UHGV virus genome: UHGV-0353144
DNA: 13,630 nt
Reading direction: 5' to 3' (one strand)
Source of the DNA: a virus
Shown: in pieces, positions 1 to 7,462 of the stretch
Layout of the letters: every line of letters begins with the position of its first letter
Numbering within the stretch: position 1 is the stretch's first letter
Program-made: the position numbers and the translations under genes
The notes under the pieces: model-generated
What the model saw: the letters and a program-made list of their open reading frames with translations, nothing else
The model's database searches: none
Told to the model about the DNA's origin: nothing

Positions 1-716
1 GCCCACATCAGTGGCTGACGTCGCGCCCCCATCCCGGTAAGCATCGTGGTGTAAAGCGCATCGGTGGCGTGCTCGTGATATTCATCCACCACCGCACAGT
101 GGGGTGATGAACCATCACCGGGGTTACCGATCAGCGGTTCAAACCGCGCGCCATCCTCCGGACGATTCATGTTTGAGGCGTTAACCTCAATCCCGAACGC
201 TTCCGTCAGCATGGGTGTGCGTTTACACATCAGTCGCGCCGGGCGAAAGACTTCCCATGCCTGTTTCTCCGTCGTGGCACCGGAATACACTTCCGCGCCG
301 AACTCGTTATCACAGGCAAAACAATACAGGGCGACACCGGCAGAGATTGCTGATTTGCCGTTCTTACGGGGGATTTCGGTATACACCTCCCGGAAGCGGC
401 GCAGCCGGGAGCCTTTATTGACCCAGCCAAACGCGCAGCAGATCACAAAGAGCTGCCACGGCTCCAGCGTGATGGGCATCCTCTTGAATGCCCACTCACC
501 CTTGGTGTGCGGCAACAGCTGAATAAATTTGGCGGCCCGTTCAGCCAGGTCCTTGTCGAAGCGGTAACGAAACGACTTACTTTTTTCCGCCATCAGGTCA
601 TCAAGATGGCGCTGGCAGGCCTGAATCACAAACTGGCAGACCACAATCTTTCCGCGCACGACATCCCGGGCATACTGATTGGCAGCATTTACGTTGGGGT
701 AAGATTTCCGGCTCAT
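1..716 (-). CDS. terminase large subunit, N-terminal ~238 codons (gene continues past the window start)
   Basis: Minus-strand frame from ATG at 716 is open to position 1; I checked every codon in that frame by hand and found no stop. Translation begins [29 protein letters not shown] and contains the P-loop-like motif EIPRKNGKS seen in HK97-type large terminases. ATGA overlap with the stop of the upstream small-subunit gene. Absent from the ORF track because it has no stop in the window. Confidence 0.8.
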
Positions 717-1207
717 GATTCGATAATTTTCAGAAACGGGTTAGTGGCTTTCTTCTGCCCCGCCAGGCCAATCAGACGCTGGCGGCTGCTGGGGTCGAGT
801 CCGAGCATTGCCCCCGTGCTGCTCATCTCGGACTCCTGTTCTTTCTTGGCGGTCAGCTCCGGATTTTTGACCATACCGCCCATTGCACCGGTGATGGTGT
901 TGCCCTGGCTGGCAATATTTTTCACGGCACGTCGCCAGAACTCATAGGCTACGCACCACCGCTCAAGCACCGCGAGGTCAGTCACGCACAGCAGGCCCTG
1001 ACCGCAGAGTTCTTTGGTTGTCAGTTGCCACATGATCGTGGCGAGAGGGAGATTTTCTTCTGCGAACCACTCCGGTGGCTCAACGCCTTTGATGGGCGTA
1101 AAAACAGGTTCATCTTTGTTCAGGGCTCGCTTGCCGGGGTTTCCGGCCAGCGCCTTGCGCGCCGTTGGCTTGGGGCGACGCCCGGAACGCCCCGCCGTTC
1201 CAGCCAT
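713..1207 (-). CDS. terminase small subunit (HK97-like packaging module)
   Basis: ORF-track ORF 713..1216 starts at GTG; the ATG at 1207 has a GGAG Shine-Dalgarno about 8 nt upstream. Basic N-terminus [18 protein letters not shown]. Sits between the HNH gene and the large terminase. Confidence 0.7.
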
Positions 1208-1257
1208 ATGCGGCACTCCTGGTTAAATTTCATTTTTCGCGGGTATAAAAAAACGAT

Positions 1258-1332: not shown

Positions 1333-1683
1333 TTACTTCAACCGTTCACGGGCCGTCTTCGCCTTATGACACGGCCAGCACAGACTCTGCAGATTACTGT
1401 CGGCATCAGTGCCGCCATGCGCTTTAGGGATGATGTGGTCAACGGTTTTCGCTTCACGCACCACACCGGCACGCAGGCACAACTGGCACAGTCCTTTGTC
1501 ACGCTTCAACACACGCACGCGGATAACATCCCACTTCGAACCATAACCGCGCTGGTGACGGGACTGACCTGGCTTATATTGCGTCCAGCCTTCGCTTTTG
1601 TGGCTTTCACAATAGCCTGACGGATCTGTGGTGGTATGGCGGCAACCGCGAACACGGCAGGCTTTTGGGATTCGTGGCGGCAT
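1333..1683 (-). CDS. HNH endonuclease (terminase-associated)
   Basis: 116-aa ORF with Cys-rich N-terminus (CRVRGCRHTT...YCESH) and the HNH core DHIIPKAHGGTDADSNLQSLCWPCH. Lies immediately upstream of the terminase genes, as in HK97 gp74. Confidence 0.9.
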   Translation of the reverse strand: MPPRIPKACRVRGCRHTTTDPSGYCESHKSEGWTQYKPGQSRHQRGYGSKWDVIRVRVLKRDKGLCQLCLRAGVVREAKTVDHIIPKAHGGTDADSNLQSLCWPCHKAKTARERLK

Positions 1684-2036
1684 ATGTACTAATCTCCGAT
1701 TTATCCAAATTTCACTGCCATAATGCCGACATTCTCTGCCATTGTTGGCTCCGTTTATCCGTTAAAAGGGATATCAGTTAAGTTATCCCGTGTAGGGTAT
1801 AAGCCATTGTCGAGACCACTCATTGAATGGTCTCTGCAATAACCGATGTCTTTCCATCAGTCCGCCACCACAAAGAATCTTTTTTGCCATAAGGCTGGAG
1901 GTTCATCTTTCAGTGGCTGCCAGTGTTATTTCCCCACTTACTGGCTTGGGTTGTATCGCTGTACTGCCGTAACTGGTTACCCAGAATAAATTCCGGTTTC
2001 ATTATCAAGCCCACCCGTAGATGGGCTTTGTAATGG

Positions 2037-2294
2037 CTACTTCGCTTTTGCTTCCGCTCGCTTACGCCGGCGCTCTTCTTTCCTCTCGGCTTTTGCCATG
2101 TCCATGAATGCCTGCATGATCGAGTTCCGCATCATGTAGCTAACAAAGTGATGATTGACACAGCCGTTGAGGCGCAGCTGCTCGCCAAACTCATCCACCG
2201 AGGCCAATGCTTCCATCATGCCCTTCTCGCCTTTCATGAACTCTGAGAAGTCGCGCCCCGCTCTGGAGGCGCATTCAATGACACGATCACTCAT
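2037..2294 (-). CDS. hypothetical protein (85 aa), translationally coupled to the upstream KilA-N gene
   Basis: ORF-track ORF 2037..2294. Its ATG overlaps the stop of the KilA-N ORF (ATGA at 2291-2294). Lys/Arg/Glu-rich C-terminal tail (AKAERKEERRRKRAEAKAK). No family recognised. Confidence 0.5.
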   Translation of the reverse strand: MSDRVIECASRAGRDFSEFMKGEKGMMEALASVDEFGEQLRLNGCVNHHFVSYMMRNSIMQAFMDMAKAERKEERRRKRAEAKAK

Positions 2295-2788
2295 CCCGGA
2301 AGCCCGGGGATCGTAATCTGCAGCTGGTTAGCCAGGGAGTTAATCTCAGCGACCAACACTGGCTTCGTATAGCGCCATGCCGCCAGCCCTTGTCCGCAGA
2401 AGCTCGCCATGTCTTTCTTCTGGTCAAACTCATGACATTTCATGTTGAGCTGCGCACTTAAGCTGTTGCGATGCTGAAGTTCTCCAGTGAAGTAGTCATC
2501 GAGGACTTTATAGGCCGCGTACTTGAACCCGGGGTTTAACCAAGCCGCATAATCGTAAGCAACAAACTTCCCGCCATATGTTCCACCGTGTACACCGCGC
2601 TCAGTAAAAACCACAGATTCGTGGTTTTTCTCCAGCTCGGCTAAGAACTCTTTGGTCTGCTTGTTTCGCAGGTAGTGGTACGGAGATTCAGATTCACTTT
2701 TACCACTGGCTTTCCACATATCAGTGAGGCAGATCATTCCTGATTCATCAACACGGATCGGTGTATTAAAAAGCGTGATTGCTTTCAT
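2291..2788 (-). CDS. KilA-N (APSES-like) domain protein
   Basis: ORF-track ORF 2291..2824 begins at a GTG with no SD. The internal ATG at 2788 has an AAGG SD and gives N-terminus MKAITLFNTPIRVDESGMICLTDMWKASGK, which resembles the KilA-N DNA-binding domain from memory. Start assignment is uncertain. Confidence 0.6.
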   Translation of the reverse strand: MKAITLFNTPIRVDESGMICLTDMWKASGKSESESPYHYLRNKQTKEFLAELEKNHESVVFTERGVHGGTYGGKFVAYDYAAWLNPGFKYAAYKVLDDYFTGELQHRNSLSAQLNMKCHEFDQKKDMASFCGQGLAAWRYTKPVLVAEINSLANQLQITIPGLPG

Positions 2789-2930
2789 AGCGTCTTTACC
2801 TTTTAGAAAGTGAGCCTGTCTCACAGAAAAGCCGCCCGAGAGAGGTCGCCACCTATAACGGCATTTCTCAGGCTCGCTTACTGAAAGGCTCTCGTTAATA
2901 TGCGCGTGAGATGCGCGTTTACTGCGGACA

Positions 2931-4234: not shown

Positions 4235-4353
4235 GTCTTACCCACAATAAGGGGATTTGCTCTATTTAATTAGGAATAATGTCTATTACTGATAGAACAA
4301 ATCCAGGCTACTGTGTTTAGTAATCAGATTTGTTCGTGACCGATATGCACGGG

Positions 4354-4389
4354 CAAAACGGCAGGAGGTTGTTAGCGCGACCTCCTGCC
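4354..4389 (-). other. strong RNA hairpin in the late leader (10-bp perfect stem), possible attenuator/terminator
   Basis: Stem GGCAGGAGGT (4360-4369) / ACCTCCTGCC (4380-4389) with a 10-nt loop; on the minus-strand RNA it is followed by GUUUUG. About 130 nt upstream of S. Confidence 0.4.
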
Positions 4390-4634
4390 ACCCGCTTTCA
4401 CGAAGATCATGTGTAGAAGGCCGCAGCGTAACTATCACTGATGAATTCAGGATAGCCAGTGGCTACGGCTCAGTTTGGGCTGTGCTGTTGCTGGGCGGCG
4501 ATGACGCCTGTACGCATTTGGTGATCCGGTTCTGCTTCCGGTATTCGCTTAATTCAGCACAACGGAAAGAGCACTGGCTAACCAGGCGCGCCGACTCTTC
4601 ACGATTATCGGCTCAATGCTCTTACCTGTTGTGC

Positions 4635-4679
4635 AAACAAAAAAGCCACCGTTGCAACTTAAGAGTCACTAACGGCAGC
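4635..4679 (-). terminator. tR'-like intrinsic terminator of the short late-promoter transcript
   Basis: On the minus-strand RNA: GCUGCCGUU ... AACGGUGGC (9-bp stem with two G-U pairs, 17-nt loop) followed by UUUUUUGUUU. The equivalent plus-strand pairs would be C-A/A-C mismatches, so the structure is strand-specific. Positionally matches lambda tR' (flanking sequence GCACAACAGGTAAGAGC as I recall it). Confidence 0.55.
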
Positions 4680-4689
4680 TTACCCTCTA

Positions 4690-4719
4690 ATTATGGCTAA
4701 ATGGCTAATTGCATGTCAA
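4690..4719 (-). promoter_or_regulatory. late promoter PR' (sigma70) overlapping the 3' end of the Q-like gene; presumed qut region
   Basis: Minus strand: TTGACA (4714-4719), 18-bp spacer, CATAAT (4690-4695). The -35 lies in the last codons of the Q-like ORF and the Q stop TAG sits in the spacer. Predicted start is ~45 nt upstream of the tR'-like T-run. Confidence 0.55.
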
Positions 4720-5877: not shown

Positions 5878-6061
5878 CTCTTTCACTCCATCCGCGATGA
5901 ACCATGAGAACGTCGTTGACGATGGCGTGCATTTTCCCGTCTTTATCATCAACGTATTTTCTGACCGTACCGCGACTACATTTCAGTCTGCGTGCCACTT
6001 CTGTCTGGTTTCCGTATGCTTCAACGAGCATGTCTGGAATGGTTTTTACTGAGAACGTCAT
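5855..6061 (-). CDS. ninH: NinH
   Basis: ATG at 6061 gives [68 protein letters not shown] (68 aa), matching lambda NinH by recall. ATGA overlap with the rusA stop; 23-nt overlap with ninI as in lambda. Confidence 0.85.
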
Positions 6062-6453
6062 GCGGCCTCCAGTAGCTCTGTAATCATTGGCAAACTCCCG
6101 CATGTTTCAGTCACAACCAACACAAGCATTCCACCTTTAATCGCCTGATAGCGCTTGATGCGCATATCGTCTATCTGACCGTCATCCAGCCAGAAGCCCG
6201 CACTGGTGAGTGCGTCAAAAACGGCTTTGGGCAGATTGTCCAAATCTCGTTTGCGGTTATCGGGAGGTGCTGCGTGGATGGTTATTCTGATGCGAGGTGT
6301 GATTTTGATGTCTAGCTGTTGTTGCTGGATTATTTCGATTACTTCTTTTCGGTATCTCTCCCCCCAGTCGCTGATGTAGTGGATCCCTCTTGAGTGTCGC
6401 CAATATCGGTTGTTTGAAGGAGGCCACGGCAATTTTATTCGGTAGGTTTTCAT
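6058..6453 (-). CDS. rusA: RusA-type Holliday junction resolvase
   Basis: 131-aa product MKTYRIKLPWPPSNNRYWRHSRG...RDLDNLPKAVFDALTSAGFWLDDGQI matches the RusA family signature by recall. Confidence 0.85.
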   Translation of the reverse strand: MKTYRIKLPWPPSNNRYWRHSRGIHYISDWGERYRKEVIEIIQQQQLDIKITPRIRITIHAAPPDNRKRDLDNLPKAVFDALTSAGFWLDDGQIDDMRIKRYQAIKGGMLVLVVTETCGSLPMITELLEAA

Positions 6454-6740: not shown

Positions 6741-7462
6741 TAAGCAGCCTCCCCGGTTACTTTCAGCATTCCGTTATCGAGCAGCTTTCTGGTCAGCCAC
6801 TGTTGACCACGCCCGGTGATTTTTGTGGTGAACGATATCTGTATTCCGTGATTTGTGTTGACCGCTGTTTCTTTCACTGTGAAATAGCCGCGATCCATAT
6901 ATTCCTGCATTGGCACATTGCGCCGGGAACCTGAAGCAATAAGGATTTTGTGATCGCGCATCCACGCAAACAGTTTGTTTGGACCAATTCCAACAACCTT
7001 TGCAAAGTTTCCAATCAAAATTCCGCTGGCCTCGCCAACGCGATCGGCAAACTCAACTTTAGGTGCGGCAATTGCGAACTGGTTTTCCAGTTGCATTTTC
7101 TGCTCAGCAAGATCAGCAGCAAGGCGCAACGCTTCTGGTAGCGTTTTGGGGATATTAACCGCAGCTTCTTCAAGATCTCGCCAGCGGTCAACAAGGCGAG
7201 CGGTGAACTCTGGCGACAACTGGGCAACAACAACAATACTATCTCGCTTACCTTGTTCGCCTTCGAAGACGTAAGCCTCGACACTACGTCGCAGTCCTAA
7301 GTTATTGATTTTTTCGAAAACCTGCAATGCAGGAAGTTGAATAACTCCAGATTTAGCCAGGCGCTCTATTGATATTTTTACGTTATCTGGACGACTTCCC
7401 ACCAAATCAGCGATTTCAATGCTTGTCATTTTGATGGCATTGCCATTTATTAACTCATTCAT
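6740..7462 (-). CDS. phage antirepressor-like regulatory protein (Rha-type N-terminal domain + ANT/KilAC C-terminal domain)
   Basis: 240-aa ORF. N-terminus TSIEIADLVGSRPDNVKISIERL resembles the Rha family; C-terminal half (AIAAPKVEFADRV...FAWMRDHKILI...GRGQQWL) resembles the ANT antirepressor domain. Both by recall. Confidence 0.65.
   Translation of the reverse strand: MNELINGNAIKMTSIEIADLVGSRPDNVKISIERLAKSGVIQLPALQVFEKINNLGLRRSVEAYVFEGEQGKRDSIVVVAQLSPEFTARLVDRWRDLEEAAVNIPKTLPEALRLAADLAEQKMQLENQFAIAAPKVEFADRVGEASGILIGNFAKVVGIGPNKLFAWMRDHKILIASGSRRNVPMQEYMDRGYFTVKETAVNTNHGIQISFTTKITGRGQQWLTRKLLDNGMLKVTGEAA

Follow-up and report, generated by a model that had tools for sequence, protein, structure and literature searches.

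The stretch of DNA analysed here, UHGV virus genome UHGV-0353144 (13,630 nucleotides (nt), referred to below as the window), comes from a lambdoid prophage, of which it forms the right arm. All of its genes lie on the minus strand and they include the replication genes O and P, the nin region, Q and the genes for holin, endolysin and Rz. Our subject is a gap of 353 nt between a gene of 85 amino acids (aa) and an HNH gene, which an earlier sequence-only reading had singled out and whose exact limits, 1684-2036, are borne out by the list of open reading frames (ORFs). We consider it likely that this gap consists of a structured non-coding RNA module of the late strand together with a recombination joint, an identity that does not imply any single role. 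The gap and the two genes bordering it are made up as follows, the module limits having been placed at homology breakpoints among 134 loci:

2037-2294, minus strand: gene of 85 aa, hkbL type, phrog_875
2035-2000, minus strand: module A, the hairpin H1, directly 3' of the stop codon of the 85-aa hkbL-like gene
1999-1972, minus strand: variable linker, an insertion hot spot with a cluster of breakpoints
1971-1845, minus strand: core B, 127 conserved nt with a pseudoknot domain on the 5' side and two hairpins, one long (1917-1864) and one short (H5, 1858-1845)
3' of core B, minus strand: module C, with H6, H7 and its UUUU, and a ribosome-binding site
1840-1805, minus strand: hairpin H6, the closing element of the core-B cassette and a paralogue of H1 in direct repeat
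1789-1768 (with UUUU to 1764), minus strand: hairpin H7, GGGAUA...UAUCCC, a weak terminator-like element
1752-1749 and 1742-1740, minus strand: ribosome-binding site GGAG and ATG of an hkbM/orf80-type gene, phrog_571
1733-1684, minus strand: private 50-nt leader of the HNH gene with its own Shine-Dalgarno sequence, GGAG 1697-1694
1333-1683, minus strand: HNH gene (Pfam HNH, E 2e-16)

Most of this sequence is widely shared. More than 200 phage records contain positions 1733-2036 at 90-100% identity. In HK97 the space, unannotated, precedes its HNH gene gp74, HK620 has an equivalent unannotated one between hkbL and hkbM, and P22 has one between rha and orf80 where the only annotation is a 25-codon "orf25"; HK022 also carries the module. 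(The label DUF2560 belongs to hkbM, as in the RefSeq record of HK620, and not to the 85-aa hkbL-type gene.) Alignment with related phages, proposed earlier as the way to recognize a decayed gene, shows the same gap to be equally non-coding in HK97, HK620 and P22, and the bulk of it is therefore not a decayed gene. Of 5426 complete E. coli genomes, 1120 (about 21%) carry core B in one to three copies, and among 108 distinct copies on phage contigs only about eight positions are commonly polymorphic. In enterobacterial phages its orientation is without exception that of the late genes and the gene before it is Rz, Rha/KilA-N or hkbL; the gene that follows may be of hkbM type (60 loci), Gp49-like (21, IMG/VR), HNH (11), terS (5) or yet another. 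Where module C is replaced, the next ribosome-binding site trails core B within about 33 nt, which makes core B the autonomous unit.

Could the gap code for one or several small proteins? The candidates would be a 35-aa ORF (1783-1890), a 28-aa ORF (1820-1906), the 30/34-aa ORFs at 1910-2014, or an equivalent of P22 orf25. Depositors sometimes annotate such ORFs (Dewey CDS0073 and CDS0074; P22 orf25), and the N-terminal 15-21 codons of two of them fall in the conserved core. However, among homologues the two ORFs starting inside core B keep these first 15-21 codons only; their C-termini are replaced altogether when the downstream module changes, and within them there are indels of 1 nt and 2 nt, thus frameshift variants. 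The eight common polymorphisms of core B lack codon periodicity, and six short gap ORFs from both strands gave no match to a Pfam or PHROG family. The view that the gap has no convincing ORF holds: on the minus strand ORFs comprise 13-35 codons, none of them with a usable Shine-Dalgarno sequence, and every one of the candidates named above lacks one. We looked in the gap ORFs for a ribosome-binding site, a kept frame and codon-like substitution, as expected of a small protein, and did not find them. Likewise, in the E. coli records listed, RefSeq calls no feature at core B except for an overlap with the end of the Rha gene. A protein product is thus highly improbable, and core B, like the gap module as a whole, is non-coding.

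The structural evidence starts from three inverted repeats noticed in the sequence-only reading, all of which are present:

1755-1773 with 1784-1802: inverted repeat with the core GGGATA/TATCCC, followed on the minus strand by TTTT
1806-1822 with 1824-1840: inverted repeat
2000-2013 with 2022-2035: inverted repeat

Folded as minus-strand RNA, the segment 1740-2036 reaches -101.6 kcal/mol as against -71.0 +/- 4.4 for shuffled sequences (n=200; z -6.96), with none of the 200 folding as well; the plus strand gives a z of -3.99. H1 is built of an outer stem of 5 base pairs (bp), a CA/GA internal loop and an inner stem of 9 bp, and has no U-tract. Its fold of -20.6 kcal/mol corresponds to a z of -5.94 on the minus strand compared to -3.46 on the plus strand. 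Each of its pairs is preserved in 42-48 of 48 distinct homologues, in which the pair 2023-2012 is C-G 27 times and U-G 19 times and the pair 2021-2014 is U-G 44 times. H6, likewise without a U-tract on the minus strand, has a folding energy of -24.2 kcal/mol (z -5.99); at every position pairing is held in 46-47 of 47 distinct homologues. A second allele of H6 has four pairs changed from G-C to A-U on both sides and a different loop, and the pair 1831-1815 appears as A-U (14), G-U (24) or G-C (9) in the 47 sequences. Since G-U pairs would be A-C mismatches on the plus strand, H1 and H6 belong to the minus-strand RNA, and the single-hairpin folds, with the stronger z for H1 on the minus strand, agree with this assignment. 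The check for covariance across homologues proposed beforehand thus revealed minus-strand-specific covariation in both hairpins: selection has maintained H1 and H6 as structures of the minus-strand (late) RNA. They align with each other end to end (ATTrCArAr.CCAT...GTGG.yT.GAyAATG), and the window contains two instances of this pattern and no more, both on the minus strand, one on each side of core B. The H1 piece is also found without core B in Stx2 and other phages. The third hairpin, H7, folds at -8.3 kcal/mol (z -3.31) and its 6-bp stem followed by UUUU is near-invariant among 47 homologues; it failed the terminator scan, having four U only and a long loop, and nothing else in the gap passed that scan.

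Small-RNA sequencing of P22-infected Salmonella lists ten phage RNAs (PMC13397905, 2026). One of these, P22G, is a 204-nt RNA of the late strand from downstream of ORF201/rha, present at 488 reads per million (RPM) in cells and 374 RPM in vesicles and not seen in uninfected samples (PMC13397905). Its ends, set by read coverage, lie 39 nt inside rha on the 5' side and in the 5' arm of H6 on the 3' side, and it was published without structure, family or function (PMC13397905). Positions 1970-1827 of the window are identical to nt 59-204 of P22G at 140 of 146 positions (96%). On this degree of identity core B is a homologue of P22G, an RNA whose accumulation is known from P22. The two share the late strand and a position between the lysis-accessory genes and the packaging genes; they differ in that P22G starts inside rha, as P22 has neither H1 nor the linker, and stops within the 5' arm of H6. 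The window has no homologue of the remaining novel small RNAs of P22 (B, E, F, H, I).

The P22 locus (L003, BK000583) has some features of its own. At 720-1340, between orf25 and orf80, there is an apparently unannotated opposite-strand ORF with its own Shine-Dalgarno sequence inside what looks like an 833-nt "gap", and a bidirectional terminator at 1296-1316 belongs to this opposite-strand ORF region. A further fragment in these 833 nt (LTDKQEMFCHEYLIDLNATQAAI) is similar to the N-terminal end of a different small terminase.

The second relationship of core B concerns its 5' domain, which resembles the Proteo-phage-1 motif (Rfam RF03044; Weinberg et al. 2017, PMC5737381). At gathering thresholds Rfam has no match anywhere in the window, and the best of 4227 Rfam families was RF03044, at 1915-1986 on the minus strand (19.6 bits, E 0.29-0.41). 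The elements of the resemblance are:

1952-1915, minus strand: Proteo-phage-1-like core comprising P2 stem, 13-nt loop, tail and pseudoknot
1950-1948 with 1934-1932, minus strand: P2 stem, CCC with GGG, 3 bp only
1947-1935, minus strand: 13-nt loop AAGCCAGUAAGUG, closed by CCC/GGG
1930-1915, minus strand: tail AAUAACACUGGCAGCC
1945-1941 with 1923-1919, minus strand: H-type pseudoknot between loop and tail, GCCAG with CUGGC

Both the family loop (A)AAGCCnGnnAGUG and the family tail AAnAACnCnGGCAGCC are recognizable in the window core. The pairing of loop and tail reads GCCAG/CUGGC in the window, GCCGG/CCGGC in canonical members and GUCGG/CUGGC in L163b, the second copy of a Pseudomonas locus. 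One pseudoknot pair covaries (G-C 11, A-U 5, G-U 1, other 1), and in the family alignment four P2 pairs as well as one pseudoknot pair change on both sides. Taking P2 and the pseudoknot together, 98.6% of cells pair, compared to 84.6 +/- 2.0 after shuffling and 14-48% with the partners slid. The pseudoknot count is independent of the fit of the alignment because covariance models do not encode pseudoknots. A model named R1, built from the P2 stem, loop and tail of five Pseudomonas-type sequences with the enterobacterial sequence excluded, matches the window at 1915-1952 on the minus strand with 24.4 bits and an E-value of about 2e-4 (113-139 kb searched), a rough figure given the shortened calibration. 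The copies of P22, HK97 and Shimwellia score around 25 bits with R1, and the best noise match scores 15.6 bits.

Beyond the 13-nt loop, the short closing stem, the tail and the covarying loop-tail pseudoknot, core B shares with Proteo-phage-1 a hairpin right after the tail and the phage setting. It differs in the absence of P1, a P2 of only 3 bp, a shorter linker and a position in the middle of the late operon, whereas canonical members are found in high-GC Pseudomonas-type phages, some with a terminator of their own. Canonical members score 58-88 bits and a subtype directly upstream of terS 33-39 bits, below the threshold of 42, so that the family already has sub-threshold relatives. Judged by this comparison core B is a distant relative of Proteo-phage-1 and not a member by Rfam's rule. 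The genomic positions of the relatives vary. In L131, L144 and L153 the motif lies just upstream of terS and terL; in L163 and L170, both Pseudomonas prophages, it follows the NinG, HNH and phrog_3412 genes, where the late operon would begin; another lineage is located in the early region. Several lineages have a hairpin with a C/U-rich loop right after the tail; in some, an intrinsic terminator closes the element ahead of the next gene. The suggestion of a small RNA at this locus, one of several offered by the sequence-only reading, is thereby strengthened on three counts: the minus-strand covariation of H1 and H6, the 96% identity to P22G and the match to the Proteo-phage-1 core.

Several observations at the Proteo-phage-1 loci stand on their own. 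The prophage of Pseudomonas sp. JDS08PS003 (L163) carries two copies, 5997-6075 and 7249-7329 (57.9 and 79.2 bits), 1.25 kb apart and flanking two small ORFs downstream of NinG-HNH-phrog_3412. In L174 a c4-2 antisense-RNA motif (RF02944, 42.3 bits; 1363-1437, minus strand) lies about 250 nt past the Proteo-phage-1-like element and its terminator, upstream of an integrase-like gene. At the type-1 Pseudomonas-phage loci L126-L160 conservation extends some 90 nt past the Rfam model (about 70-200 nt beyond the motif); the conserved part contains a hairpin with the compensatory changes GGCTC/GAGCC, GCTGG/CCAGC and GCTCC/GGAGC; next comes a long hairpin with a conserved base (GCATCGGAG...CTCCGATGC) and an upper part that is wholly different between phages. 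L178 has a tRNA-like 3' end (GGTTCGATTCCCTGTATCCGCTCCA) about 230 nt past a canonical element, directly upstream of which there is an intrinsic terminator.

The remainder of core B is predicted to fold into the long hairpin 1917-1864, whose apical internal loop would leave ACCUCC (1902-1897, minus strand) unpaired, a sequence identical to the anti-Shine-Dalgarno core of 16S rRNA. In other lineages the C/U-rich loop of the hairpin after the tail reads ACUCCAC, CUCUCAC, ACCUCAC or UCCUCC. The long hairpin may thus expose a 16S-like loop, as suggested by the predicted fold. A minimum-free-energy helix at 1972-1938, which appears when the full gap is folded, was discarded: it is broken in homologues, with the pair 1971-1939 unpaired in 53 of 108.

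A number of observations weigh against reading the gap as a structured RNA module. The score of 19.6 bits is less than half of the RF03044 gathering threshold of 42. The 5' P1 hairpin of the family is absent, the P1 alignment returned by cmscan containing non-standard pairs, and the sequence upstream of 1971 is not conserved among enterobacterial copies. A reciprocal nhmmer search with a core-B profile against Pseudomonas-type loci was not significant (E 0.33-8.5), with three of the five top matches sitting on the motif. Folded alone, core B does no better than shuffles (z -0.59) and thermodynamics is for this reason unusable as evidence for the core, nor do the enterobacterial copies of core B show any informative covariation. 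Nucleotide diversity in core B, 0.03, is not clearly below that of the flanking modules A and C (0.05-0.06), in a comparison restricted by mosaicism to few loci with the same flanks (n = 3-7). As this diversity is near that of the flanks, the conservation of core B taken by itself may reflect recent exchange. As to P22G, it rests on one small-RNA sequencing study with read-defined ends, it is not stated to be among the two RNAs verified by reverse transcription PCR, and it may be left over from the decay of an abundant late mRNA; the evidence for accumulation comes from P22.

Some of these points suit another explanation, namely that the gap is a passive boundary or linker, conserved as homology for mosaic recombination, and that its hairpins are ordinary gene-end structures. 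Breakpoints are indeed concentrated at its borders (1733, and around 1845, 1972 and 1987) and the flanking genes are highly variable; the ordinary thermodynamics of core B alone and a diversity like that of the neighbouring modules fit as well. Conserved boundary sequences at module joints are said to have been proposed in the genome papers on HK620, HK97 and HK022. Yet a passive linker leaves unexplained why an RNA motif with a covarying pseudoknot should be matched in unrelated high-GC Pseudomonas phages, why H1 and H6 show a strand-specific G-U pattern and why P22G accumulates, and we regard this explanation as quite unlikely.

How would the RNA be produced? A promoter for the packaging genes, as envisaged by the sequence-only reading, did not materialize: no sigma-70-like site was found in 1684-2036 on either strand, by a scan able to detect consensus-like promoters only. 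The equivalent region of P22 did not yield a sigma-70-like promoter either (-35/-10 with 16-18 nt spacing), with the same restriction to consensus-like sites. Moreover, the sequences upstream of core B are unrelated, H1 and the linker in the window and the end of rha in P22. Together with the promoter scans this argues for an RNA that is cut from the late transcript and not separately initiated. In the mechanism that we propose for the structured RNA module, the gap would be read on the minus strand within the Q-dependent late transcript, the RNA probably being part of the late mRNA rather than the product of a promoter of its own. Protection from RNases by the flanking hairpins and the pseudoknot would lead to accumulation of a stable fragment; the RNA would thus most likely be a stable structured domain that is cut out of the late transcript or punctuates it.

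The same data bear on a free-standing gene for a trans-acting small RNA, an RNA "moron" with its own promoter ending at H6 or H7, which would be expressed in lysogens or late in infection and base-pair with host or phage mRNAs, for example via the ACCUCC loop. P22G is abundant in infected cells and vesicles, Rfam classes Proteo-phage-1 as a small RNA gene, and an intrinsic terminator follows the motif in L174, L163 and L181. The cassette is in addition bracketed by hairpin repeats and can be absent, and H7 has a short run of U residues. On the other hand, besides the missing sigma-70-like promoter and the different upstream sequences in the window and P22, many copies lack H6 and H7 and have the next ribosome-binding site within about 33 nt of core B, and H7, where it is present, fails the terminator scan. 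We therefore consider a separate small RNA gene rather unlikely.

H7 also matters to a further alternative, a cis-acting antitermination or attenuation leader (put/nut- or riboswitch-like) in which the pseudoknot would act on RNA polymerase or a factor and control read-through of H7 into the packaging and head genes. In its favour, relatives of core B stand at the head of long operons, either before terS (L131, L144, L153) or after NinG-HNH-phrog_3412 (L163, L170); in L181 a relative is followed by a terminator and then a gene start; one Pseudomonas prophage has two copies; and the order in the window is similar, with core, hairpins, U-run hairpin and ribosome-binding site. But H7 is weak and missing from many copies, and no ligand or partner protein is indicated. 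Besides, late transcription in such phages is already resistant to termination through Q, the gene for which is present in the window. A leader of this kind seems to us very unlikely.

As regards the function of a structured late-strand RNA module, a role in cis as a processing or stability punctuation, which would cap the packaging/head mRNA at its 5' end and the lysis-accessory segment at its 3' end, is a fair way short of certain and is put forward tentatively as quite possible. Phage polycistronic mRNAs are known to contain processing and stabilizing hairpins, e.g. the RNase III sites of T7 and the sib and N-leader sites of lambda. H1 and H6 are comparable in having stems of about 15 bp with a small internal loop and in lying between genes on a long transcript, and by analogy they could leave protective hairpins at the ends of the RNAs. 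They differ in showing no sequence similarity to known RNase III sites and in having stems shorter than the classical two-turn substrates. A role in trans of the released RNA, as a protein-binding decoy or as a regulator through the ACCUCC loop exposed in the predicted fold, is possible but doubtful.

The gap is also a place where DNA comes and goes. The linker contains a 57-nt insertion in HK620, and a 1-nt indel there sets the window apart from HK97, L and HK620 and breaks the ORF 1910-2014 in these phages. In E. coli H95, H100 and H103 the match spanning the gap is interrupted by extra DNA with a Gp49-family gene. Judged by such alignments, accessory genes have entered the gap repeatedly. 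In Stx phage 2851 there is only one hairpin of the H1/H6 type, with the 5' flank of H1, the 3' flank of H6 and no core B. Given this single hairpin and the paralogy of the two hairpins in the window, the piece made up of linker, core B, H5 and H6, about 195 nt long, is a cassette bracketed by direct hairpin repeats. Lambdoid phages reportedly carry morons, autonomous insertions between late genes. The cassette resembles them in being discrete, present or absent between the same flanks, and located at a hot spot for other cassettes such as Gp49-like genes, the opposite-strand gene in P22 and HNH genes. It is unlike morons in having no protein gene, no recognizable promoter and no strong terminator, and in being bracketed by direct hairpin repeats. 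One may go further and imagine core B with its closing hairpin as a mobile RNA-only cassette related to Proteo-phage-1, which inserts and deletes at a conserved gene-end hairpin and owes its spread to an action in trans of the excised pseudoknotted RNA late in infection, either by sequestering a host factor or defence protein or by binding Shine-Dalgarno sequences with the ACCUCC loop. We offer this as a speculation that is unlikely to be correct.

The left end of the gap has a different history from the structured module. The sequence ACGGAGCCAACAATGGCAGAGA is common to the window, Dewey, HK97, HK620, L and P22, which diverge beyond it, and ACGGAGCCAACAATGGCAGAG is the ribosome-binding site and start of the 80-aa hkbM/orf80-type gene in Dewey, HK620, L and P22; Dewey and HK620 have the gene intact, at 80 aa. 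The window is identical only as far as 1733, 10 nt past the ATG (1742), and what is left is a 13-codon ORF, 1742-1701. All gap matches to phages in the collection stop at 1733, as do the whole-window matches to HK620, HK022, Sf6 and others, and this joint is found in 14 complete E. coli genomes only. HK97 retains 25 codons of the hkbM/orf80-type gene before a different HNH gene. As the joints of the window and HK97 differ, HNH-packaging modules were joined into the 5' end of hkbM/orf80 at least twice. The leftmost 50 nt of the gap are thus a joint that fuses a different HNH-terminase module 10 nt into an hkbM/orf80-type gene. Two proposals of the sequence-only reading apply here and only here: there is a recombination scar at the left end, where homology with more than 200 phages stops at 1733, and a gene remnant in the form of the 10-nt hkbM/orf80 stub, and neither extends to the rest of the gap.

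What was already known is P22G, catalogued in 2026, and the Proteo-phage-1 motif, described in 2017; the sequence itself has been sitting unannotated in model phage genomes for decades. The link between P22G and Proteo-phage-1, the covariation of the pseudoknot and the hairpin-bracketed cassette are new. Our literature searches on Proteo-phage-1, DUF2560 and P22 orf80/rha gave nothing on function; a full-text search on the motif name returned no paper, the core sequence came up only in the P22G paper (PMC13397905), and we found no paper linking P22G with Proteo-phage-1. Two orphan records, a P22 small RNA and an Rfam motif of Pseudomonas-type phages, prove to concern one kind of RNA, with the consequence that the motif gains a genetically tractable host-phage system and P22G a testable structure. 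HK97, HK022, HK620, P22 and about 21% of complete E. coli genomes carry the element without annotation, and the gap should be marked as a non-coding RNA region rather than filled with short hypothetical ORFs. If the RNA does control processing and stability of the late transcript, or acts in trans, this would amount to a widespread and unstudied layer of late expression in temperate phages.

The other genes and intergenic spaces near the gap are:

2291-2824, minus strand: KilA-N gene, after Rz
713-1216, minus strand: terS, gene for the terminase small subunit
4235-4696: space of 462 nt between Q and holin
2825-2986: space of 162 nt after Rz
1217-1332: non-coding space of 116 nt between HNH and terS

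The gap had been thought exceptional among spaces of a few nucleotides, which is not the case, since spaces of 462, 162 and 116 nt also exist and the one between Q and holin exceeds it in size. The 116-nt space corresponds in position to what we take to be the cos site of HK97-type phages, between the gp74 HNH gene and the small terminase gene. A search for tRNA and tmRNA genes returned none. Directly past the Rz stop codon, at 2930-2956 on the minus strand, lies an intrinsic terminator of 9 pairs, GAGCCTCGC-GAT-GCGGGGCTT followed by TTTTAT. As it sits amid the late genes, the Q-modified polymerase presumably transcribes through it.

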